From the IMG/VR virus record IMGVR_UViG_3300027898_000003, positions 1 through 56,910 of that record: DNA of 56,910 nt; one strand, written 5' to 3'. The notes under the pieces were generated by a model that saw only the letters and a list, made by a program, of their open reading frames with translations, had not been told where the DNA came from and ran no database searches. This document shows, one piece after another, positions 2,238-55,855 of the stretch. A program made the translations under genes and the position numbers. How positions within the stretch are numbered: the stretch's first letter is position 1; every line of letters begins with the position of its first letter. This stretch comes from a virus.

Positions 2238-2386
2238 CGCGTCCATCTCCATAATTCCCACAATGCACCCAATTCAACGAGGCTGGCCCCAGCCTGCTCA
2301 ACCACCGGTGCATCGGGTGGCAGTTGACGTTGTAAAGTCCCGCAGCCGCTAAGCGTTATGACCAGTGCTGCAATTACGTATTTCAT
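2234..2386 (-). CDS. small lipoprotein (50 aa), not in ORF track
   Basis: GGAGG 4 nt upstream of ATG 2386. Hand translation MKYVIAALVITLSGCGTLQRQLPPDAPVVEQAGASLVELGALWELWRWTR has a signal peptide and LSGC lipobox. ATGA overlaps on both sides. Confidence 0.6.
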   Translation of the reverse strand: MKYVIAALVITLSGCGTLQRQLPPDAPVVEQAGASLVELGALWELWRWTR

Positions 2387-3111
2387 GTAACCTCCACAAA
2401 AGATTTATCCCAGCTGCGAACGTCGCCAAGTGGATACACCTGATTGACAACCCACGCAACACCTTTGCCTTTGATGCATTCGACCAAATCCGTTGGGTCG
2501 ATCAACTCTCCAGCTTCGTACGATCGCTTGACAAACAGCGAATCAAACCATGTCGATGCTCGTGTCTCCATCATTGCCATCGCAATAAAAGGTTTCAACC
2601 ACTTCTTGAACGCAATACGGGCTTTCTTGCGCGCGTCCGAAGTAGTGGGCTCTTTCTCGTTGGGCGCGTCGACACTACTAGCAACGTCGAGCATACCGTT
2701 TTTGTACGTTAAGCGTATAGGGAAATCCCCAGTTGCATGTTTGTTAAAACCGACTATGACTTCGCGACCAGTCGTTGCAAACTGCTTGCTGTATGCCCCT
2801 ACGCCCAGCACACGGTACATAAAATATGTGCTGGTTTGTCGTTCATCGACGTTGTACTGCACTTCGCGGCGCTCGCAGCCATTGATCAATTCTGGCTTGT
2901 AGAATCGCGCCATAGACGTGCTGTACAAGACCACATCGTAGTAACCATCGTGCTTTTCAACACGAAAATGGGGTTTGCTAATGCCGTCCAATGGACGCTG
3001 GTTTTCTTTCCACTTTTTACTTCGCGTCTTGAGTGGTGTCTTGAACAAATAATCTGCTGCTTCGTAGTTTTGAATGCGTTCGCAATTACGAACGTTTGCG
3101 CCCCATGCCAT
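2383..3111 (-). CDS. hypothetical protein (242 aa)
   Basis: Track ORF 2383..3126. ATG 3111 (MAWGAN) is preceded by AAGGAA. Confidence 0.65.
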   Translation of the reverse strand: MAWGANVRNCERIQNYEAADYLFKTPLKTRSKKWKENQRPLDGISKPHFRVEKHDGYYDVVLYSTSMARFYKPELINGCERREVQYNVDERQTSTYFMYRVLGVGAYSKQFATTGREVIVGFNKHATGDFPIRLTYKNGMLDVASSVDAPNEKEPTTSDARKKARIAFKKWLKPFIAMAMMETRASTWFDSLFVKRSYEAGELIDPTDLVECIKGKGVAWVVNQVYPLGDVRSWDKSFVEVT

Positions 3112-3269
3112 AGCTATTCCTTTCAAGTGTTAAGGGTGGTGGGTTGGGCCTTACTCGCCCACCGCGAGCTATTTGAATCTGAACCGGCTGTTCATCGTCA
3201 TCGGGGGGCCGATTCAGAAACCGAAGGTCATAGAGGACCCCATCGCTTCGGCCAGTATGCACACCCCCG

Positions 3270-4469
3270 TTATTCTTCCATCTCGAAGTGTATCGTGATA
3301 CCCCACGGCGCCACAATGTCAGAGCTGATTAACCAGATGACAGGATAACCCGGGTCTTCGCCGAACGGCGTGTAGCCATCGGTCAGGCAGATAAATACAT
3401 CGGGCTCGATGCCATGCTCCTGTACCCAGTCAAAGCCTACCGGCATGTTTGTGCCGCCGCCGCGCATGAATTCCAATACAACCGGTTCTTCAGCCTCAAA
3501 TTCGACGTGCTTCTGGACATGCGTGTCGGTGTAGATGACGTGCACTTTCTCAGGCGCGCACTGCTCGAAGATGCGGGCAACGTGGCCGTTGTAGTACGCC
3601 ATCTCACGCTCGGATACGGAACCAGACACATCGACTTGCTCGACAATGGTACCCATGGTTTGTTTGCGACCAGTGCTGGGGAAGTACGTTACCCGGCTGT
3701 CGTACCGGCGGTTAGGCCGAGCCCATGTGCTGTTACTCTGAATGAAGCCAGTCATGTAACGCTCAAGGATGTCATACCACGGCGTCTTGACTGCGAGCAA
3801 GCTTGTGACCAACTGTTCCAGAATACCAGTGAGCTTGCCTGCCATCTTGGCGGCTTGCGCTGCTTGGGCAACCTCACGGAAAATACGTGCCTGCGCATCA
3901 GAAGCTTCCTGCTCGGTGCATGGGTCGGAGTCGTCTATGTCGTTGCCGATACCACCGCCTTCATCCGTTGACTCGGGCAGCTCGTTGTACACACGGTCGG
4001 TCGTCTTCTGATGCGAGCCGGGCATGTCAACCGTGTTGGGGATAGGCACACCGATCTTGCACTGGGCCAAGAAGTCGTTGATGACTGCATCGCCGGCATA
4101 GTTCCAGCGCGCATGGTTGCGGCTACCGCGACGGTACAGGTGGTCGAACATCTCATGGCCTACCTCATGGCACAGCGCCCACATAAGCTGGTCAACGGTC
4201 CACTGTGAACACCACTTGGGGTTGAGTTTGATCTGGCTGCGCCGGTTGATCGACAGCGTGGGTATGTCGTACGAAAAGATAAGCTCGCGGCGCAACACCA
4301 TGACTGCCCAGAAACAGTGATGCAGGACAAGTTGAGTCTTGGCTTTGGAGAGCTTGAACTCAAACGCTTTAAGGCCTGCTGGTGACAGATGCTCCGTAGA
4401 ACTTGTTGATGAGCGCTGGGCTCCAGAGTGTTGAGCTGCTGCCGAACTTGTTGAGGTTGCTTGGGTCAT
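3270..4469 (-). CDS. metallopeptidase-VWA fusion protein (DUF2201-like architecture), partner of MoxR-type ATPase
   Basis: HEVGHEMFDH (HExxH) lies in the N-terminal half. The C-terminal VWA has MIDAS residues DVSGSV ... GGGT ... TDG. The 5' end is uncertain because of a 101-nt overlap with 4369..4686. Confidence 0.8.
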   Translation of the reverse strand: MTQATSTSSAAAQHSGAQRSSTSSTEHLSPAGLKAFEFKLSKAKTQLVLHHCFWAVMVLRRELIFSYDIPTLSINRRSQIKLNPKWCSQWTVDQLMWALCHEVGHEMFDHLYRRGSRNHARWNYAGDAVINDFLAQCKIGVPIPNTVDMPGSHQKTTDRVYNELPESTDEGGGIGNDIDDSDPCTEQEASDAQARIFREVAQAAQAAKMAGKLTGILEQLVTSLLAVKTPWYDILERYMTGFIQSNSTWARPNRRYDSRVTYFPSTGRKQTMGTIVEQVDVSGSVSEREMAYYNGHVARIFEQCAPEKVHVIYTDTHVQKHVEFEAEEPVVLEFMRGGGTNMPVGFDWVQEHGIEPDVFICLTDGYTPFGEDPGYPVIWLISSDIVAPWGITIHFEMEE

Positions 4470-4686
4470 ACCATCCTTTGGGTTGAGTTAAATAAGTTTT
4501 GCCGTTTTCGAGGGCGTAAATATTCGCTTGAATAATTTGTTTCCAGTTGTGGCTAAACGGTGGAATGTGGTCTTTGTGTCCTCCTTCAAGAAGAAAGGTA
4601 ACCATCAACGCTTTGTATTCCTTGCGTCGTTGGCGACGAGTTAAATTGCGATTAGAACGCTTCTTTTTTTCTTTGTTCGTGGTCAT
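4369..4686 (-). CDS. hypothetical basic protein (105 aa)
   Basis: ORF with ATGA overlap to the upstream gene. Lys/Arg-rich N-terminus. Confidence 0.55.
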   Translation of the reverse strand: MTTNKEKKKRSNRNLTRRQRRKEYKALMVTFLLEGGHKDHIPPFSHNWKQIIQANIYALENGKTYLTQPKGWYDPSNLNKFGSSSTLWSPALINKFYGASVTSRP

Positions 4687-4898
4687 TCGTCAAGCTTCTG
4701 ATTGGCAATCATGACCGACACATAGTCCTTGTTCAGAATCGTACCGGTAATCGTGGGTTGGTGTTTGTGCAGTTCATAAATATAACCCGGGCCAGACTCG
4801 TAACGATTGGTAACGTCCACCAGTTCACCAAGCAAATCACTGCAGCGCAACGGGACCATAAACGTGCCTTGGATAACAATGTGTGCTTCGTTTTTCAT
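4683..4898 (-). CDS. hypothetical protein (71 aa)
   Basis: ORF in an ATGA-coupled chain. Confidence 0.55.
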   Translation of the reverse strand: MKNEAHIVIQGTFMVPLRCSDLLGELVDVTNRYESGPGYIYELHKHQPTITGTILNKDYVSVMIANQKLDE

Positions 4899-5125
4899 TC
4901 AAGTAACCTCGATATGTAATGAGCAATGCATTGCTCGATTGCGTCTTCCTGCTTACAAACAGGACCCTGAAAGTCTGACCACGCCGGAAATTTTCTTGCA
5001 CGCACGCAAGAACGGTATGACCAACCGTGAGAATGCTTTTGAACGACACCCACAATAAGATGGTTTGCATCATACAAATACTGACTGTTGTACATAACTT
5101 CATAGTCGCTGGCTTGGATACTCAT
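4895..5125 (-). CDS. hypothetical protein (76 aa)
   Basis: ORF in an ATGA-coupled chain. Confidence 0.55.
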   Translation of the reverse strand: MSIQASDYEVMYNSQYLYDANHLIVGVVQKHSHGWSYRSCVRARKFPAWSDFQGPVCKQEDAIEQCIAHYISRLLE

Positions 5126-5415
5126 GAGTGCTCCATTATGAACATAGCCATCCGAGCACGCTCAGCCTTGATGTCGTGTATCCATGTGCCTGAATAACAA
5201 TTAAAAGAACCAGAAAGTGATTTTGGTGCAAGAACACTAAGGTGGTTGTGCAACGTCATGTCATCGTCAGTGGTTAGCACAGAATAAGCGTGCTTGTTAC
5301 TACAACACACGCATTGCCGGCACCGGTGCAATGTTTGATCGGCGGTCAAACCGTTGCTAAATATGGGCGCTTCAACATAACGATAGCGCTTGCGTTTAAA
5401 GGTGGTGGTAATCAT
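5122..5415 (-). CDS. hypothetical Cys-rich protein (97 aa)
   Basis: Internal ATG (MITTTFKRKRY) of track ORF 5122..5535 gives an ATGA overlap with 5412..5645. Contains CRQCVCC. Confidence 0.5.
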   Translation of the reverse strand: MITTTFKRKRYRYVEAPIFSNGLTADQTLHRCRQCVCCSNKHAYSVLTTDDDMTLHNHLSVLAPKSLSGSFNCYSGTWIHDIKAERARMAMFIMEHS

Positions 5416-5645
5416 GCATCCTCCAGTTTGGTTGTGACCAACGAGTAAATCAACATGGTCGTTGCTTCTTGCTGGGTAGCGCATGGCCTGCTGACAAGGT
5501 ACGGTTGATCGCTGGTAAAGTCGTTCCAGTACCAAGCTTTCTGGTCTTGCTTACCAGTCACCATGTCTTCGTACACACGCCCTAGTTGACGCCCATCGTC
5601 GTGATACAAGAACATGTAGCAGGGGAGAACGTCATCCCATCTCAC
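5412..5645 (-). CDS. hypothetical protein (77 aa)
   Basis: ORF in an ATGA-coupled chain. Confidence 0.5.
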   Translation of the reverse strand: MRWDDVLPCYMFLYHDDGRQLGRVYEDMVTGKQDQKAWYWNDFTSDQPYLVSRPCATQQEATTMLIYSLVTTKLEDA

Positions 5646-6532
5646 GCGAAGTAAGCAGCCAGCTTGTCGGCGGCAGCTTCCAAGTTAGCCTTGGCTGTGG
5701 AACGCGCAGTTTCGTCGGTCTTGATTGTCTCGATGCCGAACGTGTAACCTTGCACCAAGCGCTCGATGTCGGCAATTTCTGCCAACAACTGAGGCGTTGC
5801 GTCGATAGCCAGCTTGCGCGCCAGCTTGCAGCCTTCCAGCACGTTTTCCAGTACGCTCGCATGGAAGCGTTCGCCCTTCTCGCCTTTGTAGGTACCTAGC
5901 CGGTTGGTCAGATACTCCAGTGGTTTGAGCATGCGTTCGATCGTTGCGTTGTTGGTGTCAGCCAGCATCTCGGCAAACTGCGAACGCACTGCCTGCTTGT
6001 CTTCCTCGTCCATGTCAAACAGCGGGTGCGACTCGTCGGGCAAGGGAATCATACGGAAATCAAAGCTGATGCGTGCAGCAAACTCGGATGCTGTTGGGTA
6101 GTCGCTCAGCGTTGCATGGCCGTTGGCTTTGCCGTAGTTGCGGTACGCGATGTCGTCGAGCACCAGCTGGTCATATATGGGCAATACGTTCTGCTTATGG
6201 CTGTCCACCACAGCGATCAAGTGCCGCAGCCCTTGGGTGTACTCGAAGATGTTGTCGCCGCGCACCAGCCGCTTATCGCCGCAACGCTCGGTGTTGTCGC
6301 AGTGATAGGCATAGACCTCGGATACAGCCCGCATAAGCTTCCACACAGGCGTGCTTTCCTTGCGAAACAGTTTGGTAAATGCCGTGGCTGATGCATCGGA
6401 CTGACGCAGCTGAGCCGTTGCCGTGTTGTCGCGTTTGACCAGTGTTGTTCGTCGAATAACCAGCTTGGCTTCGATGGCTTTCTCGGAAAGCTTTGCGACT
6501 TTGGGAACCATGGGGGTTTGAATGAGGTGCAT
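5642..6532 (-). CDS. conserved hypothetical protein, possibly DUF3150-like
   Basis: 296-aa ORF with AAGGA before ATG 6532. It lies between the AAA+ and VWA genes. The family name is from recollection only. Confidence 0.6.
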   Translation of the reverse strand: MHLIQTPMVPKVAKLSEKAIEAKLVIRRTTLVKRDNTATAQLRQSDASATAFTKLFRKESTPVWKLMRAVSEVYAYHCDNTERCGDKRLVRGDNIFEYTQGLRHLIAVVDSHKQNVLPIYDQLVLDDIAYRNYGKANGHATLSDYPTASEFAARISFDFRMIPLPDESHPLFDMDEEDKQAVRSQFAEMLADTNNATIERMLKPLEYLTNRLGTYKGEKGERFHASVLENVLEGCKLARKLAIDATPQLLAEIADIERLVQGYTFGIETIKTDETARSTAKANLEAAADKLAAYFA

Positions 6533-6542
6533 ACAATTTTCC

Positions 6543-6794
6543 TTAAGCGAGTTCTAACAATGCCATTGCGTGCTGGATGCGCGCTTCGGGTGTGTTGAGG
6601 ATGTACACGGTGTGAACGCAATAATAAAAATCGTCTTCGGGTGACAATCTACTAAGTGTTTTACATCCTTGGTTGTTGTACGAATTAAGTGCGCATCCTG
6701 TGCACGCATTCATTTCGTCGGGGTGAACTGGCCAGCGCACAAGCTGGTACTCTATACCTTCGTATGTGGTTGTATCTCCTATGTTAAGTTTCAC
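6543..6794 (-). CDS. Cys-rich miniprotein, paralog family member
   Basis: GTG start with GGAGG upstream and a GTGA overlap. CTGC...C...C, then an ...ALLELA tail. Confidence 0.6.
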   Translation of the reverse strand: MKLNIGDTTTYEGIEYQLVRWPVHPDEMNACTGCALNSYNNQGCKTLSRLSPEDDFYYCVHTVYILNTPEARIQHAMALLELA

Positions 6795-7027
6795 GCTGCC
6801 TCCAGTTTGAGTGCGATGTAGTCTCCCATTGCTTCTTTGTTATCTGGAACGTAAATAATGCTGCGACAATGACCATATTCTGTGTACACAACACGACAAC
6901 CCGGGCTTCTAATAATAAAATCTCTGTTGTCGAACGCGCAGCCTGTGCAGCTTTCAAACCCAGTTGTGCCGGGTTTTACTTCCGGCACTGTGCGGTAGTC
7001 AACGCCCCTATACAAGAACGTCGGCAT
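6791..7027 (-). CDS. Cys-rich miniprotein, paralog family member
   Basis: Internal ATG (MPTFLYRG) of track ORF 6791..7210. CTGC...C...C, then an ...LKLEAA tail. Confidence 0.55.
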   Translation of the reverse strand: MPTFLYRGVDYRTVPEVKPGTTGFESCTGCAFDNRDFIIRSPGCRVVYTEYGHCRSIIYVPDNKEAMGDYIALKLEAA

Positions 7028-8024
7028 TTGCTGCTGCCCAGTTGTAATACGCCTTGGTCTTCTTGATGGCCGGGTCTTTCTTGATGGCATCCTTGATGCA
7101 AGTAACCCGCAGCTCAGGCTCGAAGCGGTCGGTGTACGCGCACACGGCATCGAAGTTAGCCGCAGTCGACGCCCGGGCAACTGCACCCATGACAGCGTAC
7201 TTGATGTCAAGTCGCGACGGCAGTGCGATGGTCGTGGGGTTCTTGAGGATGTCAGGGATGTGCGGCAAGTCGTTCATGATCTGCTTGAACCCGATGTACT
7301 CAGCGGCACGGCCAGAACCCACAGAACCCGCGGCATTCTCTTGCTGCAGGCTGAGTGGCAGGGACTCTGGGATACGCGCTACATCTTCCCATGTGCGCGG
7401 CGTGGCGTTGGCATAACGCGATGCGTCGAAGTCGACCAGTGCTGCACCTTGCATGAAGCGGTGGTACTGCACAAGCGCAATGGGGAAGTTCATGGCGTTT
7501 GCATAGTCACACCATTCTTCAAGGTTCTCGGTGTAATCCAGACGACGCGTACGGCCAGCAAATTTGGTCGGCACACGCATGGCACCAGACTTGTCCTCGG
7601 GGCGATTGCCAGTAGCAATGATGTAGAGCTGGTCGGTCAACTCCCACTCGCCGGCAAAGCGGTCATAGATGATGCGGCATGCTGCGTTGAACATCTCGAC
7701 CCGGGCATCGCTGAATTCTTCGAGCAACAAGGCACACTTGCCAACGCCCTTGCGCATTTTGTAGAACATCTCGGGCGGTACCCAGCGAGTGAACTCGCCG
7801 TTGGTGTTGGGCATGCCCAGCAAATCCACAGGGTCACGAGAGCTCAGGTTGAGCTCGAACATATTGACTTGGGGTATGAAACCAAGCTCGCAGAATGAAT
7901 CACGAGCGCATGCCGACTTGCCTCCGCCGGGTGGGCCCATGATGGCGAACACGGTCTTGTTGGCGTCGGCGCGCTCCTGAGAGAACTGAGCGACGATAGA
8001 GTGCTTGATGTCAGAGTATTTCAT
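7008..8024 (-). CDS. MoxR/CobS-type AAA+ ATPase
   Basis: Walker A GPPGGGKS, Walker B LLLEEF. 338 aa. AGGA precedes the ATG. Confidence 0.85.
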   Translation of the reverse strand: MKYSDIKHSIVAQFSQERADANKTVFAIMGPPGGGKSACARDSFCELGFIPQVNMFELNLSSRDPVDLLGMPNTNGEFTRWVPPEMFYKMRKGVGKCALLLEEFSDARVEMFNAACRIIYDRFAGEWELTDQLYIIATGNRPEDKSGAMRVPTKFAGRTRRLDYTENLEEWCDYANAMNFPIALVQYHRFMQGAALVDFDASRYANATPRTWEDVARIPESLPLSLQQENAAGSVGSGRAAEYIGFKQIMNDLPHIPDILKNPTTIALPSRLDIKYAVMGAVARASTAANFDAVCAYTDRFEPELRVTCIKDAIKKDPAIKKTKAYYNWAAANADVLV

Positions 8025-8072: not shown

Positions 8073-8447
8073 TTATTTTTCTAACGCGTTCATGGCAAGC
8101 TGAACATTTAAATCCATGATGCCACCGTGAGCATCGAGGTATTCCACTATTGACATAAGTGGGACGTAAGCGTAGGGTTGTCTGTATTCTTCGTCACGCT
8201 TACCAAGACAATCGTGGTGCGGGCAATGCCACATTTCCATGCTGCGCGGAACTAGCTCATTGCCGTGGCAATAAAATGCGCGACTGTATTGCAGTGATGC
8301 AGTTGCACCATCGTTCATTCGTATGGGTACACGCACTGTTGCGTAGCTAGGCTTGTCTTTTTCCGGGTAAGGGATCTGACGCCGTTCATCTAAGTCAAAA
8401 CGTTTGTCACTCAACCACGCCAGTAGCGTGCGCAATGTCTCGGTCAT
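8073..8447 (-). CDS. hypothetical protein (124 aa)
   Basis: ORF. His/Cys cluster WHCPHHDC. Confidence 0.55.
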   Translation of the reverse strand: MTETLRTLLAWLSDKRFDLDERRQIPYPEKDKPSYATVRVPIRMNDGATASLQYSRAFYCHGNELVPRSMEMWHCPHHDCLGKRDEEYRQPYAYVPLMSIVEYLDAHGGIMDLNVQLAMNALEK

Positions 8448-8670
8448 AGGGTATTCCTTCTAGTGCGGTAGTAATTGCTGCCATTTTTTCGGCCCATACG
8501 AAATTAGGCAATTCACTATTTTGGTTGAACTTGCAATCCCATTCGCCTTCTGTACATTGTGGGTTAAACAAACCTGACATATCGTTAAAGCGTACGCATT
8601 GCGTGCATGTGGGTTTGACGAGACGGCTGACGGGAATAAGCACGTACTCTTTACTGTTAATTGAGGGCAT
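8407..8670 (-). CDS. Cys-rich miniprotein, paralog family member
   Basis: GGAGAAATCAAATG start context. CTQC...C...C pattern. Confidence 0.55.
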   Translation of the reverse strand: MPSINSKEYVLIPVSRLVKPTCTQCVRFNDMSGLFNPQCTEGEWDCKFNQNSELPNFVWAEKMAAITTALEGIPYDRDIAHATGVVE

Positions 8671-8905
8671 TTGATTTCTCCAGTACTATCGTTACAGCGT
8701 CGACGACAGGCACCCATATGGTTGAACTTGGGCACGTTATGCATTCCTGTGAATTTATTGCTTTTTCATTGTTTATTGTTTTTTCGTACGCAGGGCAACG
8801 CAAGCACACCGGGCCTTCTTCGTTGAGTAAACCTTCTTCGTTGAGTAAATTAACGATTGGTATAGCTGCGCATTCAACGCCGCGTATGATGGCGCGGAGT
8901 GTCAT
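8657..8905 (-). CDS. Cys-rich miniprotein, paralog family member
   Basis: ATGA overlap upstream. CLRC...CITC pattern. Contains a tandem LLNEEG LLNEEG. Confidence 0.55.
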   Translation of the reverse strand: MTLRAIIRGVECAAIPIVNLLNEEGLLNEEGPVCLRCPAYEKTINNEKAINSQECITCPSSTIWVPVVDAVTIVLEKSNALN

Positions 8906-9099
8906 GGCGTCAATTGAAAGTCGTCGTCTGGGTGCGTGACTTGGATGGTAAAACCCAATGCGTGGATTTTGACCAGTGCTGCAGGCGTGAGCGTCTTGGT
9001 TCCAATGAGGTCTGCGAAATGGTGCGCCGTGTCACACACTGGGTAGTACACGTTGGTGCCGTAATTCTGTTTCTTGAGAACGATGATAGTCGTGATCAT
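8902..9099 (-). CDS. hypothetical protein (65 aa)
   Basis: ORF in an ATGA-coupled chain. Confidence 0.5.
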   Translation of the reverse strand: MITTIIVLKKQNYGTNVYYPVCDTAHHFADLIGTKTLTPAALVKIHALGFTIQVTHPDDDFQLTP

Positions 9100-9338
9100 G
9101 ATGTCTCCACTTTGAGTTGGGCCGCACGCACGAGCGTGACGTAGTGGCCGTCGGTGCAGTTGTTAAATACGCAGTGTTCTTCAGCGCCACCGTTATTGCG
9201 AAAGAAGCACTTTTTGCAGCCTAACCCGTTATGATGCTCTGGGTCGGTGTCATACGTAACAAACACAGCTTCGTTAGGGTGTGTATCGCTGCGTTGCCAT
9301 TGCTTTGCTGGTTTGCCGGTAGGTCTTGCTAAGCTCAT
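9096..9338 (-). CDS. Cys-rich miniprotein, paralog family member
   Basis: CKKC...C...C, then an AAQLKVETS tail. ATGA overlaps. Confidence 0.6.
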   Translation of the reverse strand: MSLARPTGKPAKQWQRSDTHPNEAVFVTYDTDPEHHNGLGCKKCFFRNNGGAEEHCVFNNCTDGHYVTLVRAAQLKVETS

Positions 9339-9574
9339 GCGTTTTCCAGTTTGTGCATTGCTGCTTCAATTAAAGTCATCCACACACCGTTACCGCACGC
9401 ATGATTCCTGCACATGATTTGTTGCTTATCGCTGTTGCCCCTGAACAGGCATTTGTCACAGCTATCTTCGCTGTCTTTCATGGGGACAAACACAGCGTCC
9501 GGTACTAATGTGCTTCGAGCAGATGGTTTAATGCATCCATTGCTATCGATGTCTTCATTTGCAACGCCGTTCAT
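9335..9574 (-). CDS. Cys-rich miniprotein, paralog family member
   Basis: CDKC...C...C, then an AAMHKLENA tail. Start set at ATG 9574 (ATGA overlap); alternatives are at 9583 and 9592. Confidence 0.55.
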   Translation of the reverse strand: MNGVANEDIDSNGCIKPSARSTLVPDAVFVPMKDSEDSCDKCLFRGNSDKQQIMCRNHACGNGVWMTLIEAAMHKLENA

Positions 9575-9711
9575 GGTCGCCATACGATGCAATCGAGCAA
9601 GATGATACCGGCCGCTGCTGCATACACAATGACCCAGTACAGGACCGTGCGCAGACCGTCGTTACGTTGCTTTATTTTGAGTGTAGGCAGTTTGGTGGGT
9701 TTCATGCGCAT
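9571..9711 (-). CDS. small membrane protein (46 aa)
   Basis: AGGAGC precedes ATG 9711. MRMKPTKLPTLKIKQRNDGLRTVLYWVIVYAAAAGIILLDCIVWRP has one TM segment. Confidence 0.55.
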   Translation of the reverse strand: MRMKPTKLPTLKIKQRNDGLRTVLYWVIVYAAAAGIILLDCIVWRP

Positions 9712-35600: not shown

Positions 35601-38600
35601 ATGGCAGTTACGCCCGCCGCGAAAAATCCGGATACCTTTGCGAGTTCAAATCTTGCGGGGGGCAATAGCGCAACGGGGGCCGTCATGGGCCTCCCTCAAA
35701 ATCAGCCGTTAGGTTCTGCCGGGCAACCCCCTGCGCAGTCCAGCATGCCGCAACTGCCGACAGGCCCGTCGGGGTTTGATAATTATTTCAATTCCCCTCA
35801 ACAAGCCGCACCGCAAAATAACGACACCGTTATTCAGCAAATGTATGCGCAACAAGCAGGCAACGCGCAAGCCAACACGCAAGCTTTGTTGCAACCCCAA
35901 GCGTCTCAGCCAAGTTACGCGGTATCTGCGGACGACAAAAGCATTCTGATCGGTGGCAAAAGCTACGATATTGATAGCAACCCGACGGCTGTGTGGAACG
36001 CGGTTAATTCACCCGACGGCCAACAATCCGCAACGACGGCACCTCCCGGTTACAAACTGGTTCCAGCCAAACTTGTATCGGGTTATCTGCAAAACATCAA
36101 CCACGGCACGCTTAGCAACGCGTATCAAGGCGTCAAAGAATTGGCGACACGCGCGCCCGGGGCGTTTTTAAATACTGCTGGCGATGCTGCTCAATGGGCT
36201 GGCGCAGACACTGTGGGTCAGGGGCTCAACAACGCAGGTGCTGCCGTCGACCGGTTTACCGGCGCTGATCAAGTTCCTGACACGTTAGGTCGCGGTCCTG
36301 TTGGTTCGTGGTTTGTTCAGACGATGGCCGATGCTGCGCCCATGCTGCCAATCATGGCGGCATCTCTTGCGTTGCCTGAAACCGCGTTACCCCGAGCGTT
36401 TCAAATTCTGGGCGACGTGGGGCTCAACATGGGCCTGTTTGGCGGACAGGCTGCTCAGCAGAAAAAAGAGTCGCTTTTGCAACAAGGTGTCGCGCCTGAT
36501 CAAGCTAACCAAGCTGGATGGGTAGATTTTTTTACGCAAGGTGGTGGCCTTATGGCCATGGGGCATCTTGGCAAAGTTGCCAGTTCTGGCACGTACGGCG
36601 CAGCTCAGCAAGTGGTAGCCAAGCTTCAACAAGCTGTCGGCAAAGGCGCCATGACCGCAGAGCAAGCCGCAGCGGCCGTAACAAACCCCGCGTACTTTGC
36701 GCGCATGCTGGCCAACGGAGCCGGCAATATTGGTGTTCAGGGCGGCGTCATGTCGGGTATGGCTGGCGCCAGCGCGGCGTCGAACAATGCTTACGGCGGT
36801 CAACAACAAGACGTTGGGGATGCAATGTTGCACGGTCTTGGCGCCGGGCTGTCGTTTGGCGCGGTGTTGTCTCCGTTGGCAGGCATTCATTCGGTGCAAG
36901 ATTCGACTCGACGCAGCGCGTTGGGCGATGCGTTAGCTACCCCGGACCAGCAAATCGATTTGCTGCAAGCCGTCAAAATGGACAAAGCAGCCAAGGATAT
37001 TCAACCCGAAGTCGGTGCATTGGCCGGCAAAAACGCGGCTGCGCAATACACGGCTGATACGCAAGCCCGGTCGACCAACGCCTACGCCGACAACATGATT
37101 GCGGCAGAACGCGCGGCGCGCGGTGAAACCCCGGGATTTGGCGGTCAGGCTCCAGCAGCTCAAGCACCTGCCCCCGATGCATCGCGTCAAGCCGACGTGG
37201 AAGCTGCATGGCCAGCACAACCCGAAGCACCTGTTGCCCTTACACCTAAAGGTAAAAAAGGCCAGCCGCCGGTCGACCCCAACGCACCGCCGCCTCCACC
37301 GGGAAATCCGCCGCCCGGCGCACCTCCGGGCGCTGAGCCTGCCGCACCAACTGCCGATCAAGAACGGGCTGAATTGGTGCGGGAAGACGCACTGAACGCT
37401 GTTGGCATCCCCAAAAAGAACAAACCAGCGCGCGACAAAGCCGCAGCCGCCATGGACGCGGGCATCAACCTTGAAAGTCCAGAAGCCGAAACGCTCGTCA
37501 AAGCGTTAAAGGCTGGCAAAATGGCGTTGGCAGACGAAGAAATTGCCAAACTGAAAGGCGCACAAAATGACGGCACATCTGGACCCGTTGCACCCGGAAC
37601 TGCAGGAGTGGGTCAACCTACAAGTGTTGAGCCTGCAAGAAGCGTGGGAACTGGAATTGCTAACGATAAACAGCCCACTGGAGACGTTCGTCCCAGCACC
37701 GAAGCATCTTCAGCCGGCGTGCTAACGCCTGTTTCTGGCGGAAATGCCCGTGTGGGTGCGTCTGCAGTAGAGAAACCTATGATCGTTGGCACCAACGAAG
37801 GTTGGGTTGCCACAAACGGCGATTATTACGGCAACGGTGCACGACCAACCGATAAACCTGTTGAACGCCCTGTCAAAACCGGACAAACCGGTTTGCCTAC
37901 TGGAAAAGTTCAGCGCGCGCCGGCTTTACCCAAATCAGTCGTTCCAGATTTCAGTGAAGCACCTACCGAAGTCAAACCAGCCACACCGGGCAGGCTTACT
38001 CTTAAAGCACCCAAAATCGAGAAAAAGCTGACGGCCGAACAAGCGTTTAACCGCCTCAAGACCGGCTTGCCCAAATACAGCGAGTTGACGCCCGAGCAGC
38101 GCGCGGTGATCGACGACACGCATGCCAAGGGTGAACTGACCCAAGAAAACTGGGATGCCACCGCAAAGACGGCCAAAGAGACGCAAGCTAAGCAAAACCG
38201 CAAACGCGTGGAAGCTGAAAGCGCTGCCGAAGACGCCAAGACGCCCGAACAACTGGCTGCGGACGCTGCAGAAAAGACGACCATACCGCCCGCTGATGTG
38301 TTTCACAAAGTATTCGGCAAAATTTTCGGTGAGCGCGTGTGGCAAATTGCCAACGGTAAAAAGTTTGGCGAAGTTGGTGCGGCCGAAAAGAAACCGGTGT
38401 CTGAAGACGGCGTGCGCAAGTCTGTCAACCGTTTGACAGCAGAGCGCATTGAAGCCGCTTTGAAGAAAGGTGACATTACACCAGCCGAAGCCATTGCGGT
38501 GAAAGACGCCCTTGACATCGCGCAAGAAAAAACTGCCAAGCGCAAAACACAAGCAGCCATTCAACAAGACGGTGGTGATTCCAGTCTGCTTACCAACGAC

Positions 38601-41600
38601 ATCAGCCCAGAGCAAACCAAAGATTTGATGATTGGCGACGGCATTCACGTGCAAGGCGCTGACAACATGGGCGTCAAATCCAAAGCCGAAAAAACGGCTG
38701 AAGTCGAACAACAAAAAGCCATTGAAGCGGAAAAGCCTGAAACGCCCATTGAAGAAACTCGGGGCAGCGGTTTAGCGACCAATGAAGAAGTGCTGGTTCA
38801 AAAAACCAAAGCGCTTGAAGAACAGCTCCAAGCAGCGCTCAAAGCCGGCGACAAAAAGAAGGCCTCAGAAATCCGCGACCAGCAAAAAGTGCTGTCCGAT
38901 TTGTACAAAAAAGGTTTAAAAAAACAAGAAGAAAAAGAAACAACGACGTTGGTTAAAACTGAAGACAAACCCATCGATGAACGCATCGACGAGCTCAACG
39001 ACAAAATTGCTGATGCGGAAGACGCAGGCGACCACAAGCTGGTTACCAAACTCGAAGACGAACGTCAGAAGCTGTACGACAAACGCGACGCTGAAATCGC
39101 CGGAGAAACTCAGCTTGCTGCGGACGAAAAAGGCGATACAACGGAAGACGGCCGTTGGAAAGACGAGTCGGATGACCCCACTGAATCAGCACATGTGGCA
39201 GATAACGCGTCGTCGGATGCCGATTTGCAGATGGACCACGATTTGCGCCAAATTGCCAAAGGGTCCGAGCCGTTTAAACAGGCTATCCAGTACGCGATTG
39301 CCAAAGAAACTAACAAGTTTCGCAAACAGATTTTGACCAACGTGCTTGCACGGTATGAGCAGCTTAAAAAACTAGGATTTGAGTTTTCGTTCGGAGTGAC
39401 CGAGCCGGGCCGTGCGCTGCGTGGCAATATGGTTGGCGTTAGCAGCCACACTCCCGGCGTTTTAGGAGAAGCCAGCAAAGTCGAAGTTAACCTCAACGGT
39501 GCGCACATGGGTGCCCGATCGGGTACCAACCAAGAAACTTTAGCGCATGAGCTCATTCACTCAGTGACCCAAGCTGCCATCAGTGCAAACCCTGAAGGTA
39601 CTGCAGCGCGCAAATTGCAAGAGTTTTATAACGAACTACGGCAAGACATTCTTAGTCGCAAAAATGCCAACAAGCTAAACGACTTTGAAAAAGCATTTTT
39701 CTCAGGCAAAAACAACTCGCTGGAAAACGCCCATGAGTTGCTATCGTGGGGGCTTACCAACCCCAAAATGCAGGAGTATTTGGCCAGCCGCATTGACCCG
39801 AAAGGGCGCACGTGGTTCCACCGCTTGCTCGACATTGTTGCCAACGCTTTAGGTTTGCACAAGGTTGACGAGCGTTCCGATCTTGCACGCTTGATTTCTG
39901 TCAGCGACGAACTGATGTCGGAAGACACGGGGGCATACGTTAAACACGCCAACGACCGCGGATTGTCTTTTGGTAAGCAAGAAAACAAATCAGGGTATTC
40001 CGGGTTTGCGTTGCTCAACAAAGGTCGTGGCGAAATTGTGTACGACAAAGACGGGCTTATATTGATTCGCAGTAAAAATCTGCGAGGTGACGAAATTTTC
40101 GTGCCGGGCAAAGCCGGCGTAGGTATCGCGCGCGTGGGCCTTGACCACTTCACAGGCGATTGGATTTCTCCGGCGGATATGGCCAAGTTGAAAGACGTGG
40201 CCAACAGTTTGAAGACTGAAGGTGCTGCCATGGTGTCGCGCAACATCGACAAGTTGCCTGACAGGTTGCAAGAGCCTGCGCGCACCATCACCGACCGGCT
40301 TAACCGCTGGACCAATTCTGGTCTGGACAAAGTAATATTTACCCGCGATCTGGTGAAGCGTGGAGTTGCCCGGGGCTTGCATGCGTTGGAGACGTTTGAC
40401 GAACACCGCGAATCGCGCGATGCGTTGGCTGGCCACTACCAAAAAGCCGCGTTAAACGCAGTGGAAGATGTGCGCACCTTTAGCACCCCCGAAAAACGCA
40501 CACTTAGTGAATTCTTGCAAGAATCCACGTTGTCAACGGCATGGGGGTATGGTCCCAAGCGGGCAGAGAACAGCCGCGCAGCCAAGCTGTACGATGCTTT
40601 GTCCCCTCGCGCCAAACGGGTTGCGGAAGCCGTGTTTGCCCATGGCGATACCATACTGAAAGCCAAAAAAGACGCGATTACGGAATTGGCTGACAGCATG
40701 TACAAACCCATGATTGCCGAAGCGACGGCAGCTGGACATCACAACGTAGCCCGGGACCTTGAGCGCGAACGTGAAGGGTTGCTGAAAAAGTACAACACGC
40801 TGTTGTCCATCGGTGAAGGTCAGCCTTACGTGTCCATGCAACGGCGTGGTGATTTTGTAGCGGTTGGTAAGTCCGACGAGTATTTAAAAGCCGAAGCGGC
40901 TGCAAATGCAGAAGACGCCACGCCAACACATCGCGCGCTGCTGGAAAAAATGCAGACGGACCCGAATCATTATTTGGTGTCTGAAGCCCAGAGCGAACAA
41001 GAAGCCAAAGCCTTGCGCGACAACATGCGTGCAGCCGGGTTCCCGTCGACGGGCGACCACACGTATTACAAACCCAAAGACCGTTGGACCCAAGAAGGCG
41101 GCGGCGTGCTGGCCGGTATGGCGCGACTGCGCAACAAGCTGGACATGATGGCTCAAGAGTCTACCAACCCAGCGGACAAAGCGCAAGCGGCGTCCATGCG
41201 CAACCTATTGACCCACATGTGGTTGGATGCATTGAGCCACCGCAGTTCTCGCAAAGCTGAGATGCGCCGGGTAGGTGTACACGGTACGATGGATGTGGTC
41301 GACTCATTTCGCCAATCGGCTGCGGCAGACGCGCACTTTATTTCGGGCATCAAGTACAACGACAAAATGCTCACCGCGCTCAAAAATGCGCGCAAACAGG
41401 CTGACCGGGGCGAAGGCGAAGAACGCACTACAAACTTGAATCTGCTGGATGAATTTTTGAAACGCCATGAGCAAAGCACCAACGCGGTGCCGACTCCATG
41501 GGCCAACAAAATCACCAAAGCCACGGCGTTGTGGCAAATCGCCACCAGCCCGGCGCATTACGTCGGTAACCTGATGCAGCCATGGACGATGACGCTGCCT

Positions 41601-43010
41601 TACTTGCAAGCGCAGCACGGGTACGCCAAAGGCATGAACGAGTTTTTTAAAGCGTACAAAGAAATCGGCGGGATTTTGGGTAAGACTGGGTTGCTGCGTT
41701 CCCTGCGCATCGAAGACATGCCAGCTGACGTGCGCGCGCCCATGCAACGTTTGCTGGAACTGGGACGGTTGGACATTGGCATGAACACCGAATACGGCTC
41801 CATGTCCATGCACCCTAAAAACATCGTGACGCGCGCGGCGCAGGCGGCAACCGACCGGGTAGCTGCAGCCTCGTTGAAGATGGAAGCATTGAACCGTTTG
41901 GCCAGCGCGGCGGCGGCATACCGGTTGGAGTTTGCCCGTACCGGCGATGCTGAAAAAGCATTGCACTACGCTGCGGACGTGGTAGCTGAAACCCACGGTG
42001 ACCATAGCCGGGCCAACGCACCGCGGGTGTTTAACAACGGGTTTGGCAAAGTGGCGTTGCAGTTTCGCAAGTTCCAGTTGGTGCAGCTGACTCAGATGGC
42101 CAAAATGATCGGCAACCTCAAAACGGCCGACCCAGAAGAACGTGCCATAGCCATACGCCATTTGGCGTACACGCTGGCCCATGTGGGCGTATTGGGAGGC
42201 GTTATCGGCATGCCCGGTTTCAGTACGTACAGCGCCGTGTCGCAAAACCTTACTAATATGTTAACAGGCATTGAAGGCGAAGACTGGGAAACAAAGATCG
42301 AAAAAGCAGTGGGAGATAAAAATGTCGCCCAGTTGCTGCTGCGGGGTATTCCCGGTGCACTGGGTGTAGATTTGACCAGCAAAGTCGGCTATGGCGACAT
42401 GCTGGGAATTGCGCCTTACACGAATGTAAACCCTGCCGATCGCAAAAGTGTGCAAGACGCCATTGGCCAAGTGACTGCGGGTCCGTTTGGTGGTCTTGTG
42501 GGCCGCGCTGCCGAATCGTTACATCACATTCTGGTAGGCAACTATTACAAAGGTATCGAAGGTATGATGCCTCAAGGTATTGCCAATGTCATGCGTGGTG
42601 CGCGCGAATTGACCAATGGCGTGACCAATACCAAAAACGACAAGCTGATGAATTTGAATGCGGGCGAAGCGTTTGCCGAAGCGCTTGGATTTCAGCCGTC
42701 CAGCAAATCGTTGATGCAATCGGAAACTGGCGCCATGATTCAGTCGACGGAACAGTTTAAAGACCGGTTGGAAATGCTTAAAGAGCGTTACAACAACACC
42801 GTCCAAAGTCACGGCGACCCCAGCAGCGACATTAAAAACCTCAACGAGCTCCGGGCAGAAATGCAGGCACGTGGGTTTAAACCAACACCGCTGGGAGACA
42901 TGTTGCGCGCGCCGACACAGCAGCTTATCCGTCAAATATTTACGACGCCAAGCGGTGTGCAGTACAAGCCGTCCGACACGGGCCGGGCAGCAGCTCAATT
43001 CCCGAAATAA
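35601..43010 (+). CDS. giant (2469 aa) virion-associated multidomain protein with zincin-like HExxH motif
   Basis: Single uninterrupted ORF. Disordered N-terminus, Gly/Ala-rich hydrophobic segments, a Lys/Glu-rich coil, HELIH at nt 39546-39560, and a large helical C-terminal half. Confidence 0.8.
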   Translation: MAVTPAAKNPDTFASSNLAGGNSATGAVMGLPQNQPLGSAGQPPAQSSMPQLPTGPSGFDNYFNSPQQAAPQNNDTVIQQMYAQQAGNAQANTQALLQPQASQPSYAVSADDKSILIGGKSYDIDSNPTAVWNAVNSPDGQQSATTAPPGYKLVPAKLVSGYLQNINHGTLSNAYQGVKELATRAPGAFLNTAGDAAQWAGADTVGQGLNNAGAAVDRFTGADQVPDTLGRGPVGSWFVQTMADAAPMLPIMAASLALPETALPRAFQILGDVGLNMGLFGGQAAQQKKESLLQQGVAPDQANQAGWVDFFTQGGGLMAMGHLGKVASSGTYGAAQQVVAKLQQAVGKGAMTAEQAAAAVTNPAYFARMLANGAGNIGVQGGVMSGMAGASAASNNAYGGQQQDVGDAMLHGLGAGLSFGAVLSPLAGIHSVQDSTRRSALGDALATPDQQIDLLQAVKMDKAAKDIQPEVGALAGKNAAAQYTADTQARSTNAYADNMIAAERAARGETPGFGGQAPAAQAPAPDASRQADVEAAWPAQPEAPVALTPKGKKGQPPVDPNAPPPPPGNPPPGAPPGAEPAAPTADQERAELVREDALNAVGIPKKNKPARDKAAAAMDAGINLESPEAETLVKALKAGKMALADEEIAKLKGAQNDGTSGPVAPGTAGVGQPTSVEPARSVGTGIANDKQPTGDVRPSTEASSAGVLTPVSGGNARVGASAVEKPMIVGTNEGWVATNGDYYGNGARPTDKPVERPVKTGQTGLPTGKVQRAPALPKSVVPDFSEAPTEVKPATPGRLTLKAPKIEKKLTAEQAFNRLKTGLPKYSELTPEQRAVIDDTHAKGELTQENWDATAKTAKETQAKQNRKRVEAESAAEDAKTPEQLAADAAEKTTIPPADVFHKVFGKIFGERVWQIANGKKFGEVGAAEKKPVSEDGVRKSVNRLTAERIEAALKKGDITPAEAIAVKDALDIAQEKTAKRKTQAAIQQDGGDSSLLTNDISPEQTKDLMIGDGIHVQGADNMGVKSKAEKTAEVEQQKAIEAEKPETPIEETRGSGLATNEEVLVQKTKALEEQLQAALKAGDKKKASEIRDQQKVLSDLYKKGLKKQEEKETTTLVKTEDKPIDERIDELNDKIADAEDAGDHKLVTKLEDERQKLYDKRDAEIAGETQLAADEKGDTTEDGRWKDESDDPTESAHVADNASSDADLQMDHDLRQIAKGSEPFKQAIQYAIAKETNKFRKQILTNVLARYEQLKKLGFEFSFGVTEPGRALRGNMVGVSSHTPGVLGEASKVEVNLNGAHMGARSGTNQETLAHELIHSVTQAAISANPEGTAARKLQEFYNELRQDILSRKNANKLNDFEKAFFSGKNNSLENAHELLSWGLTNPKMQEYLASRIDPKGRTWFHRLLDIVANALGLHKVDERSDLARLISVSDELMSEDTGAYVKHANDRGLSFGKQENKSGYSGFALLNKGRGEIVYDKDGLILIRSKNLRGDEIFVPGKAGVGIARVGLDHFTGDWISPADMAKLKDVANSLKTEGAAMVSRNIDKLPDRLQEPARTITDRLNRWTNSGLDKVIFTRDLVKRGVARGLHALETFDEHRESRDALAGHYQKAALNAVEDVRTFSTPEKRTLSEFLQESTLSTAWGYGPKRAENSRAAKLYDALSPRAKRVAEAVFAHGDTILKAKKDAITELADSMYKPMIAEATAAGHHNVARDLEREREGLLKKYNTLLSIGEGQPYVSMQRRGDFVAVGKSDEYLKAEAAANAEDATPTHRALLEKMQTDPNHYLVSEAQSEQEAKALRDNMRAAGFPSTGDHTYYKPKDRWTQEGGGVLAGMARLRNKLDMMAQESTNPADKAQAASMRNLLTHMWLDALSHRSSRKAEMRRVGVHGTMDVVDSFRQSAAADAHFISGIKYNDKMLTALKNARKQADRGEGEERTTNLNLLDEFLKRHEQSTNAVPTPWANKITKATALWQIATSPAHYVGNLMQPWTMTLPYLQAQHGYAKGMNEFFKAYKEIGGILGKTGLLRSLRIEDMPADVRAPMQRLLELGRLDIGMNTEYGSMSMHPKNIVTRAAQAATDRVAAASLKMEALNRLASAAAAYRLEFARTGDAEKALHYAADVVAETHGDHSRANAPRVFNNGFGKVALQFRKFQLVQLTQMAKMIGNLKTADPEERAIAIRHLAYTLAHVGVLGGVIGMPGFSTYSAVSQNLTNMLTGIEGEDWETKIEKAVGDKNVAQLLLRGIPGALGVDLTSKVGYGDMLGIAPYTNVNPADRKSVQDAIGQVTAGPFGGLVGRAAESLHHILVGNYYKGIEGMMPQGIANVMRGARELTNGVTNTKNDKLMNLNAGEAFAEALGFQPSSKSLMQSETGAMIQSTEQFKDRLEMLKERYNNTVQSHGDPSSDIKNLNELRAEMQARGFKPTPLGDMLRAPTQQLIRQIFTTPSGVQYKPSDTGRAAAQFPK

Positions 43011-55002: not shown

Positions 55003-55205
55003 CGACGTTCCTTGTCTGTGTAATTTTGCAACCGCGCATGTTTGGGTATTCCGCCGTCTATTGCAGTTTCTTTGGTGGTGTAAAGGTAACTGCAATCTTT
55101 GCATTTTCGAGTGCGATAGATTGCATCTTCAGCCGCCCGGGTTTCTTTCACGTAAATTTTTCCACCGCAGTTGCATCGGTAACGCATGCTGCTAATTACT
55201 GGCAT
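54999..55205 (-). CDS. zinc-ribbon protein, Ogr/Delta- or NrdR-N-terminal-like (candidate transcription factor)
   Basis: CNCGG ... (22 aa) ... CKDC, followed by YTTKE. Confidence 0.5.
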   Translation of the reverse strand: MPVISSMRYRCNCGGKIYVKETRAAEDAIYRTRKCKDCSYLYTTKETAIDGGIPKHARLQNYTDKERR

Positions 55206-55855
55206 TGTTCTTTCGCTCCTATGTTGTGATGCTTTTCAGCAAACTCAATTCCAACTTTAAAGGCCGCTGCTAAAGTCTGATAGCTTCCAATACCAAGACT
55301 CCTGCAACCTTCGGTAATTTGGACGGTAGTCAGCGGCTCCCGCAGCCTATCGCGCTCGGCCTCTGCTTTTTCCCGCAACAGATATTCAGACTTTGCGTAG
55401 TCCTGCGACTTTGCCAAATCAACGGCAAGCGCATCGCGCTCGGCTGTGAGTGCGGCCCTTACTTCATCGTCCTGCTGTGCCACTTTTAGATACTCATCTT
55501 CCATGCGTTGACGTATCTCGCGTTGCTTCGCCACAGCCGCTGCCACTGCTTCGCGGCATTGGTCGAGGGTGACGAATTTGACAACAGAAAAACCTATTTC
55601 TTTATCTTCTTCGTCAAGGACAAGCCTCCCGACTTTTGCCATTTGAAAATAACCGCGTTTGTCGCTGTGGATACACTCTGCCACTGGCTCTGGCATCTCC
55701 ACACCCGCTAGTTCTTCAAGGTGTGCGGCTTTGATGGCGGCGACTGCCCCAAGCAATTTAGTACGCTCATGGCTCGCTTGTTCGCTATCTGGATCGCCAG
55801 ATTTGTATGTTGCAACAGCGTACGCATCAGCCAGTTCAATAATTGATTTGGTCAT
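55196..55855 (-). CDS. hypothetical protein with HNIGAKE C-terminal module
   Basis: Start ATG 55855 after AGGAGAGTCGA (ATGA overlap with the Lar-like gene). C-terminus FKVGIEFAEKHHNIGAKEQCQ. Confidence 0.6.
   Translation of the reverse strand: MTKSIIELADAYAVATYKSGDPDSEQASHERTKLLGAVAAIKAAHLEELAGVEMPEPVAECIHSDKRGYFQMAKVGRLVLDEEDKEIGFSVVKFVTLDQCREAVAAAVAKQREIRQRMEDEYLKVAQQDDEVRAALTAERDALAVDLAKSQDYAKSEYLLREKAEAERDRLREPLTTVQITEGCRSLGIGSYQTLAAAFKVGIEFAEKHHNIGAKEQCQ

Follow-up and report, generated by a model that had tools for sequence, protein, structure and literature searches.

The viral genome IMGVR_UViG_3300027898_000003 of the IMG/VR collection, analysed over its positions 1 to 56,910 and called the window at this full length of 56,910 nucleotides, carries on its minus strand three genes that encode an AAA+ ATPase of probable MoxR type, a 296-residue protein designated X that appears to be a divergent relative of the DUF3150 family, and a protein in which a putative metallopeptidase domain is fused to a VWA domain. 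Comparison of gene neighbourhoods shows AAA, X and VWA to be co-inherited in fixed order across phages and conjugative plasmids, and on this genomic measure the three genes are a real unit. The pair formed by the ATPase and the peptidase-VWA protein is already known and is very common in phages; new here is the ternary form with a DUF3150-type third subunit in phages and plasmids, which does not appear in the searchable literature. The reading that we favour, with a probability of roughly 0.4, is that the triad is an ATP-driven remodelling and proteolysis module that would act at establishment in a new cell, possibly in counter-defence.

A preliminary description of the window had placed an AAA+ protein with the motifs GPPGGGKS and LLLEEF at 7008..8024, and this was confirmed, with the gene on the minus strand and the coordinates of both motifs verified (Table 1). 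Sequence comparison supports a MoxR-type, AAA_5-like ATPase that is paired with the peptidase-VWA protein. The ATPase matches PHROG 1297, labelled ‘ATPase’, with an E-value of 1.9e-60, and scores 20 bits against Pfam AAA_5 (E 7e-4), below the cut-off of 22, with its relatives at 20-25 bits. In an alignment of 10 diverse homologues the Walker A residues P32, G33, G35 and K36 are invariant, while Walker B differs by group, reading EE in the clade of the window, DE in N4-like phages, CRP-7 and MinM2, and DD on plasmids. The sensor-1 asparagine (ATGN) and a PRTW motif are conserved in the AAA+ relatives, and R158 and R210 (PRxW) are invariant. As judged from these alignments, the protein holds the full residue set for ATP binding and hydrolysis. 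Searched against the PDB, the AAA family profile finds the AAA domains of Midasin as its best match (E 2.5e-24), with Clp and p97 far weaker at about 1e-7 and with RavA, NorQ and CbbQ not among the top 60 PDB matches; single-sequence PDB searches with the AAA and VWA proteins gave no match. BLASTP relates the ATPase to gp24 of phage N4 (E 3e-22) and to bas54_0063 (E 3e-12, 24% identity over 264 residues) of Bas54, which is the Escherichia phage MaxBurger, a Vequintavirus.

[quoted passage not shown] Residues 37-264 match PF13203 (DUF2201_N, ‘putative metallopeptidase’) at 114.9 bits against a cut-off of 23.2 (E 6.8e-33), and residues 276-394 match PF09967 (DUF2201, ‘VWA-like’) at 75.7 bits against a cut-off of 26.4 (E 4.3e-21), in this N-to-C order. 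The whole protein matches PHROG 1314 (E 4.8e-79), and BLASTP finds N4 gp25 at E 2e-27 and bas54_0055 at E 2e-8. Twelve homologues with 25-61% identity to the window protein, among them an N4-like phage, CRP-7, MinM2 and three plasmids, were aligned, and H101, E102, H105, H110, R113, N123, D127 and N131 are invariant in all of them. The same is true of D280, S282, S284, T340 and D364, which make up a complete MIDAS. Weak matches of the VWA family profile are MJ1213, a minimal zincin, at 1.6e-3 and an M48 peptidase at 9e-3; the profile also matches the VWA domain of Ro60. An AlphaFold2 model of the protein has a predicted local distance difference test score (pLDDT) of 78.6, and its C-terminal half matches VWA domains, the Foldseek matches in the PDB including Ro60, CLCA1, ANTXR and the MIDAS domain of MDN1.

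Three further observations concern this protein. The database gene call begins it at Met57, giving 343 residues, and homologues align from about residue 35 or earlier; an AAGGA ribosome-binding site of its own serves the start of the 399-residue frame. The linker that joins the peptidase domain to the VWA domain (residues 249-264, WARPNRRYDSRVTYFP) is predicted to be disordered, with pLDDT below 50, and contains a conserved motif, W-x-x-P-N-R-R...Y-x-P. Across phages and plasmids, its residues W249, P252, R255, Y262 and P264 show no change or are kept in at least 90% of sequences; the linker may be a docking or cleavage element. Finally, N4 gp25 (L095:2165-3307), SP-058_00180 (L001:6992-8128) and PHROG 1314 carry the label ‘HNH endonuclease’ in RefSeq or PHROG, which is a propagated mis-annotation of gp25-like proteins, because profile searches find only DUF2201_N and DUF2201 in them.

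The central protein, X, had been described as possibly DUF3150-like. That suggestion holds as far as fold and transitive profile links go, which support it indirectly, and does not extend to a direct family match: neither X nor any of 28 family members matches Pfam DUF3150 (PF11348), even at E <= 1. X has 66 close homologue clusters at 40-82% identity, all metagenomic and many from contigs of 55-62 kb, and a profile of its family gathers 4243 representative proteins at E <= 1e-3 among 1.84 billion. One of these, P0191, matches the X-family profile at E 1e-29 and also passes Pfam DUF3150 (29.3 bits against a cut-off of 24.9), while P0206 and P0210 match the X-family profile and are sub-threshold for DUF3150. 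By BLASTP, X is related (E 7e-11) to a protein of the Synechococcus phage MinM2 that is annotated as DUF3150 and itself has no Pfam DUF3150 match at E <= 0.01. Since both proteins lack a direct Pfam match, X is called here a divergent relative and not a formal member of the family. Its AlphaFold2 model (pLDDT 87.6) combines a small N-terminal alpha/beta part with a long helical bundle. Foldseek found nothing significant for this model in the PDB (best E 0.19), and in BFVD it found proteins of uncultured phages, one of them annotated as DUF3150 with E 2.5e-12 and a TM-score of 0.71. A tblastn search of phages with X returned no match, and neither X nor any of the small open reading frames (ORFs) of the block matched Pfam, PHROG, PADLOC or NCBIfam. 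An acidic loop of X, HPLFD, was considered as a ligand of the MIDAS and not adopted, the motif being only moderately conserved in the wider family.

The case for a unit of three genes comes from its distribution. IMG/VR was scanned with a diverse VWA alignment, the 80 closest loci (32-62% VWA identity) were kept, and the 44 with at least 5 kb upstream were assessed. The AAA gene lies upstream of VWA in all 44, X is found in 43, and the order AAA-X-VWA on one strand is kept in 42, a co-occurrence that establishes the third conserved partner of the preliminary description as genuine. X is missing from one of these loci (L019), and in one IMG/VR locus (L091) it follows VWA. In many of the 44 nothing lies between the three genes; the AAA frame of L015 overlaps that of X, and 4 nucleotides past X the VWA frame begins. 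The order AAA, X, VWA is likewise preserved in three divergent relatives, where the two intervals contain 0-1 and 1-4 small genes. Across relatives the identities of AAA, X and VWA fall in parallel, at 62/53/59%, 51/49/50% and 51/44/47%. The triad is also present in MinM2.

Beyond viruses, tblastn with two X-family members found about 60 plasmids in which an X-like gene lies directly upstream of a gene annotated ‘VWA-like domain-containing protein’. They belong mainly to Burkholderia, Paraburkholderia and Cupriavidus (Burkholderiales), and about half are typed as conjugative. An AAA gene, annotated ‘ATP-binding protein’, lies upstream in all three plasmid loci inspected, and these loci adjoin PRTRC, type IV secretion system (T4SS) or methyltransferase genes. 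The X-like and VWA queries gave identical plasmid counts in the eight genera that make up most of the plasmid matches. On the B. gladioli plasmid NZ_CP045575 (L011, 6077-10179) a dnaN-like gene, for the beta subunit of DNA polymerase III, sits between the AAA and DUF3150-like genes, and the cluster has a PRTRC (ParB/ThiF-related) cassette upstream and T4SS genes downstream. Genes labelled ‘cobS/DUF3150/cobT’ on IncC-type plasmids are mentioned in bioRxiv 285403; the tblastn searches from the two X-family members gave no link to them, matching only 60 mainly Burkholderiales-type plasmids.

The pair is not an unusual one for a phage. Matches were found in 652 (AAA) and 550 (VWA) cultured phage records, all below 30% identity and mostly N4-like, where the two genes are adjacent; the pair belongs to the N4-like core, and the fused metallopeptidase and a role in assembly were already set out by Iyer et al. 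in 2021. In the Schitoviridae the counterparts are N4 gp24 (AAA ATPase) and gp25 (vWFA), which correspond to PHROG 1297/1314 and to COG0714 and COG3864 and are both homologous to the window proteins. They share the DUF2201_N and DUF2201 architecture, the HExxH and MIDAS motifs and a similar position before the replication genes. The N4-likes differ from the window in that their genes are adjacent, where the window has eight ORFs between them, in that identity is only 25-27%, and in that no DUF3150-like gene is detectable. Both N4 genes belong to the 14-gene core of N4-like phages, and both are middle genes of no known function (PMC4193335; PMC2784036). No DUF3150-like gene was detected in N4 (1-50 kb), the SP-058 locus or the whole genomes of CRP-7 and rV5_ev147, and AAA and VWA genes are both present in N4, CRP-7 and rV5-like phages. 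Because these phages and the SP-058 locus have the pair with no detectable X, we distinguish a binary form from the ternary form of the window.

Iyer, Anantharaman, Krishnan, Burroughs and Aravind (Viruses 2021, 13:63; PMC7824862) described, for jumbo phages of group 2.2, a MoxR ATPase paired with a metallopeptidase-vWA protein. They proposed a role in virion assembly and processing, drawing the analogy with Acidianus two-tailed virus and its MoxR/VWA pair. This pair resembles that of the window in joining a MoxR-type ATPase to a vWA protein with an N-terminal metallopeptidase, and by tblastn the window ATPase matches jumbo phages including K64-1 and GAP32. It differs in that no third DUF3150-type subunit is described for it and in that the window genes lie outside the structural module. 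A triad of the same composition is that of MinM2, shared with identical Planktothrix phage records, which consists of a MoxR family ATPase, a DUF3150 protein and a VWA-like protein with interleaved small ORFs. Its identity to the window proteins is about 25-28%, it belongs to another phage group with another host, and it has been annotated and not studied.

An experimental result is available for Bas54. The HIDEN-SEQ preprint of 2025 (10.1101/2025.11.20.689424) identified the MoxR ATPase bas54_0063, by comparing gene essentiality on clinical isolates and K-12 and by plaque assays in Bas54, as required to overcome the predicted defence system DS-28. Bas54 resembles the window in having a homologous ATPase and a DUF2201-type ‘putative metallopeptidase’, bas54_0055. 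It differs in its identity of 21-24%, in having the two genes on opposite strands at a distance of eight genes, and in the lack of a DUF3150-like gene; the ATPase alone is reported as necessary against DS-28, and the VWA partner is not reported.

Among cellular systems, Rea1/Midasin, NorQ-NorD, CbbQ-CbbO, RavA-ViaA and CobS-CobT likewise pair an AAA+ protein of the AAA_5/MoxR kind with a MIDAS-bearing VWA protein. These are cellular maturation factors with known clients, and they have neither a zincin domain fused to the VWA domain nor a DUF3150 partner; no sequence-level membership of the window proteins in any of these subfamilies was found. The MoxR-vWA ternary conflict systems of Kaur et al. 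(2020, eLife) are similar in that a third, distinctive component joins MoxR and vWA and that a peptidase sometimes occupies the effector position. Their third component is a VMAP, iSTAND, FtsH or beta-propeller protein, whereas that of the window is DUF3150-like and has no such domains, and they serve the cellular defence of multicellular bacteria, whereas the window triad is borne by phages and plasmids. Functional literature on DUF2201, COG3864 and DUF3150 is essentially absent from what was found, DUF3150 occurring in one unrelated preprint, and a paper on anti-defence genes of plasmid leading regions makes no mention of the triad genes.

The reading of the triad as a module for establishment and, possibly, counter-defence is favoured by four observations taken together: it occurs on plasmids, it lies outside structural operons, its catalytic motifs are intact, and bas54_0063 is reported as needed against DS-28. 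By analogy with Rea1/Midasin, NorQ-NorD and CbbQ-CbbO, the AAA+ protein would form a ring that docks the VWA protein, the MIDAS would clamp an acidic residue of the target or of the DUF3150-like subunit, and ATP-driven pulling would remodel the target, which the fused zincin domain could then cleave. The helical DUF3150-like protein may act as an adaptor, a specificity subunit or a regulator, and because N4-like, CRP-7 and rV5-like phages have only the pair, we infer that it is dispensable in some lineages. Presumably expressed from the early and replication strand, the triad would process or remove a host protein or one of the element's own proteins soon after cell entry, and so would serve establishment, host takeover or counter-defence and not virion building or cobalamin synthesis. 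A bolder form of this proposal holds that AAA+/DUF3150/zincin-VWA triads are a widespread ATP-dependent targeted protease specific to mobile elements, both phages and conjugative plasmids, that destroys or dismantles a host immunity or restriction factor on entry, with the DUF3150 subunit recognizing the target. This would amount to a new mechanistic class of anti-defence, and we consider it somewhat doubtful.

Several observations weigh against establishment or counter-defence as the role of the triad. The 44 loci are the closest relatives of the window VWA protein, and their near-100% triad frequency is not valid for the whole family. Metallopeptidase activity of the DUF2201_N domain is putative, judged from conservation of the motif, and a whole-chain Foldseek search with the VWA protein returned VWA matches only and none for the peptidase domain, whose zincin fold is thus a putative one. 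PADLOC matched none of the 10 proteins of the block, and no anti-defence profile matched either. The counter-defence idea had already been raised in the preliminary description, and it now has one experimental pointer, the need for bas54_0063 against DS-28; this is indirect support that concerns the ATPase only. The Bas54 homologue is distant, at 24% identity, its partner bas54_0055 is not among the reported DS-28 genes, and the experiments concern neither the window phage nor any DUF3150-containing triad. The pair is also part of the 14-gene core of N4-like phages that infect very different hosts, which fits a housekeeping function better than a variable anti-defence gene (PMC4193335).

That last point leads to the alternative that the triad is a housekeeping remodeller of the element's own DNA-replication, partition or DNA-entry machinery, loading or unloading clamp or ParB-like complexes, for example, or clearing protein from incoming DNA. 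The core status of the pair in N4-like phages and the embedding of the triad among replication genes, in the window as in its relatives, count in its favour, and two clamp-related associations point the same way: the dnaN-like gene inside the B. gladioli cluster, itself downstream of a PRTRC cassette, and a weak Foldseek match of X in a Cluster O mycobacteriophage, a cluster that encodes a beta clamp, Ku, a ParB-like protein and an AAA ATPase (PMC4351075). Only one of the three inspected plasmid loci has the dnaN association, however, domain profile searches detected no DNA-binding domain in the AAA, X or VWA proteins, and the Bas54 ATPase emerged from a screen for conditional essentiality against K-12, so that we judge this explanation somewhat unlikely. 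Virion assembly, in which the MoxR/VWA pair would fold or assemble structural proteins and the fused metallopeptidase would trim them, has the precedent of the proposal for the same architecture in group 2.2 jumbo phages (PMC7824862), which the window ATPase matches, and the window phage does have very large internal virion proteins that might need such handling. Against this, the same triad is carried by conjugative and mobilizable plasmids, which make no virions; the triad of the window lies in the early and replication-strand block outside the structural operon; N4 gp24 and gp25 are middle and not late genes (PMC4193335); and the Bas54 MoxR protein came from a screen for genes needed on clinical isolates and not on K-12, where virions still get built. 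We consider an assembly role unlikely.

Two narrower explanations fare less well. Pairs of AAA+ and VWA genes in tailed viruses have been labelled cobST, and viral ‘cobT’ is often annotated as a peptidase (PMC8651126; PMC11288001), from which it might be supposed that the genes are auxiliary metabolic genes of the cobaltochelatase kind, a viral CobS/CobT that uses host CobN to raise cobalamin synthesis. The domain content speaks so clearly otherwise that this is highly improbable: no match to Pfam CobS_N, CobT or CobT_C was found at E <= 0.01 and none to NCBIfam at E <= 0.1, the VWA protein consists of DUF2201_N and DUF2201 with an invariant HExxHxxxxH, and the closest structural relatives of the AAA profile are the Midasin AAA domains. 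The preliminary description had named a cobaltochelatase assignment with a degenerate peptidase motif as the finding that would count against it, and searches gave no CobS or CobT profile match and an HExxH that is invariant. The third partner, moreover, is DUF3150-like and not CobN, the plasmid triads adjoin T4SS and PRTRC genes, and the ORFs scanned include no candidate of CobN size, those of 2469 and 989 residues matching other PHROGs. It might also be supposed that only AAA and VWA cooperate and that the 296-residue gene is an unrelated syntenic neighbour in this phage lineage, as the pair-only phages (N4-like, CRP-7 and rV5-like), the displaced X of L091 and the single absence of X among the 44 loci would allow. 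X nevertheless stands between AAA and VWA in 42 of the 44 at 32-62% VWA identity, often overlapping both neighbours, and in a cyanophage and Burkholderiales plasmids, with identity down to about 25-30% and no other synteny left, its association is still kept; mere neighbourhood is accordingly improbable.

The genes that lie between the members of the triad appear to be of a different nature. The block contains 10 ORFs and not the 11 first counted. All seven small ORFs that had been listed as two Cys-rich miniproteins and five unknowns are present; a third Cys-rich paralogue, at 5122-5415, is among the supposed unknowns, so that three of the seven belong to this type. Their description as one ATGA-coupled string is right for six junctions, which are 4-nucleotide ATGA or GTGA overlaps, and does not fit the other three: the AAA gene and the first Cys-rich gene overlap by 20 nucleotides, a 10-nucleotide gap lies 5' of the 296-residue gene, and the 105-residue ORF shares 101 nucleotides (4369-4469) with the beginning of the peptidase-VWA gene. 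The nearest relative, L007, has a similar overlap of 59 nucleotides at this place. Homologues of the small ORFs were found only for those of 76, 71 and 105 residues and only in the closest relative (L007/L008), with none in L003-L006, and the two four-Cys miniproteins are absent from the matching interval of relatives. Because relatives lack the small ORFs or have different ones, and many of them have AAA, X and VWA side by side, the miniproteins and small unknowns fall outside the system, with which the preliminary description had grouped them; on these comparative grounds the seven interleaved ORFs are variable cargo and not core. The four-Cys family has seven minus-strand copies in the window (5122-5415, 6543-6794, 6791-7027, 8407-8670, 8657-8905, 9096-9338 and 9335-9592), each of about 75-97 residues with the cysteine pattern CxxC...C...C and, at the C-terminus, a helix that ends in LE. 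None of the seven matches Pfam, PHROG or PADLOC, related phages lack the copies in the corresponding interval, and the family looks like a lineage-specific expansion in the early region. Downstream of the triad, a gene for a 247-residue protein (2383-3126) was considered as a fourth conserved gene and set aside, being conserved in the closest relatives only.

The exact 90-nucleotide direct repeat at its two ends (bases 1-90 equal 56821-56910) indicates that the window was assembled as a circle; the genome measures about 56.8 kb and is probably complete. Searching cultured phages for DNA nearly identical to the region gave no close cultured relative of this podovirus-like genome of 57 kb. The plus strand from 12.4 to 43 kb encodes a terminase, an SU10-like portal, internal virion proteins and a 2469-residue protein with a DarB-like C-terminal region. 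This last ORF (35601-43010, plus strand) lies in the structural block, and its C-terminal 500-600 residues match PHROG 10089, ‘DarB-like antirestriction’, at E 6e-33; its product may be an anti-restriction protein that is ejected. The stretch of the minus strand that starts at about 11.8 kb and passes the origin to reach 43 kb carries small early-type ORFs, the triad and an HNH endonuclease, together with DNA polymerase A, an exonuclease, a SNF2-type helicase and a primase. The triad thus shares its strand with the exonuclease, helicase, primase and DNA polymerase genes, and the structural operon is on the opposite one. This layout would place the triad in an early-to-replication transcription block. 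Its assignment to the early region of a lytic phage in the preliminary description agrees with the strand of the replication genes; for both early timing and lytic lifestyle, gene order is the only evidence.

A scan of genome contigs found only two contigs of metagenome-assembled genomes (MAGs), both phage-genome-like, and gives no host assignment. They are related phage genomes binned in bacterial MAGs (Pseudomonadota, Phycisphaerales), namely L093 (JBJOKE010000046.1, 118,807 bp) and L094 (60,447 bp); at about twice the phage genome length, the 118.8-kb contig may be a concatemer artefact and not a prophage. Near the genome ‘end’, a direct repeat of 59 nucleotides with 85% identity (55203-55261 and 56065-56123, spacing 862 nucleotides) suggests that two small genes here are paralogues. 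A related phage has a terminase of 742 residues (L007:426-2654), against 474 in the window, with a weak Pfam match for intein splicing.

Table 1. Features of the triad block in the window, with positions counted from the first base of the 56,910-nucleotide stretch.
Feature	Position	Strand	Basis or remark
AAA+ ATPase (MoxR/AAA_5-like), 338 aa	7008..8024	-	PHROG 1297; homologue of N4 gp24 and Bas54 bas54_0063
Walker A GPPGGGKS	7914..7937	-	Alignment, coordinates verified
Walker B LLLEEF	7713..7730	-	Alignment, coordinates verified
Two four-Cys miniproteins, 78 and 83 aa	6791-7027, 6543-6794	-	Paralogue alignment
Third partner X, 296 aa, probable divergent DUF3150 relative	5642..6532	-	Profile links and fold
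Five small ORFs, 77/97/76/71/105 aa	5412-5645, 5122-5415, 4895-5125, 4683-4898, 4369-4686	-	Variable cargo, by comparison with relatives
DUF2201_N + DUF2201 peptidase-VWA protein, 399 aa	3270..4469	-	Pfam; homologue of N4 gp25 and Bas54 bas54_0055
HEVGHEMFDH (HExxHxxxxH, putative zinc site)	4140..4169	-	Invariant in 12 homologues
MIDAS DVSGS	3618..3632	-	T340 at 3450-3452, D364 at 3378-3380

The AAA+/peptidase-VWA pair, as part of the N4-like core and as a gene pair of rV5-like and jumbo phages, ranks among the most widely conserved pairs of phage genes for which no function has been demonstrated. If that function proves to be housekeeping, the finding is an ordinary one. The occurrence of the ternary form in phages as well as in Burkholderiales plasmids points to a need that these elements share when a mobile element enters a cell, and the triad, taken with the single report on Bas54, provides a concrete and testable candidate for an ATP-driven proteolytic machine of counter-defence or establishment.

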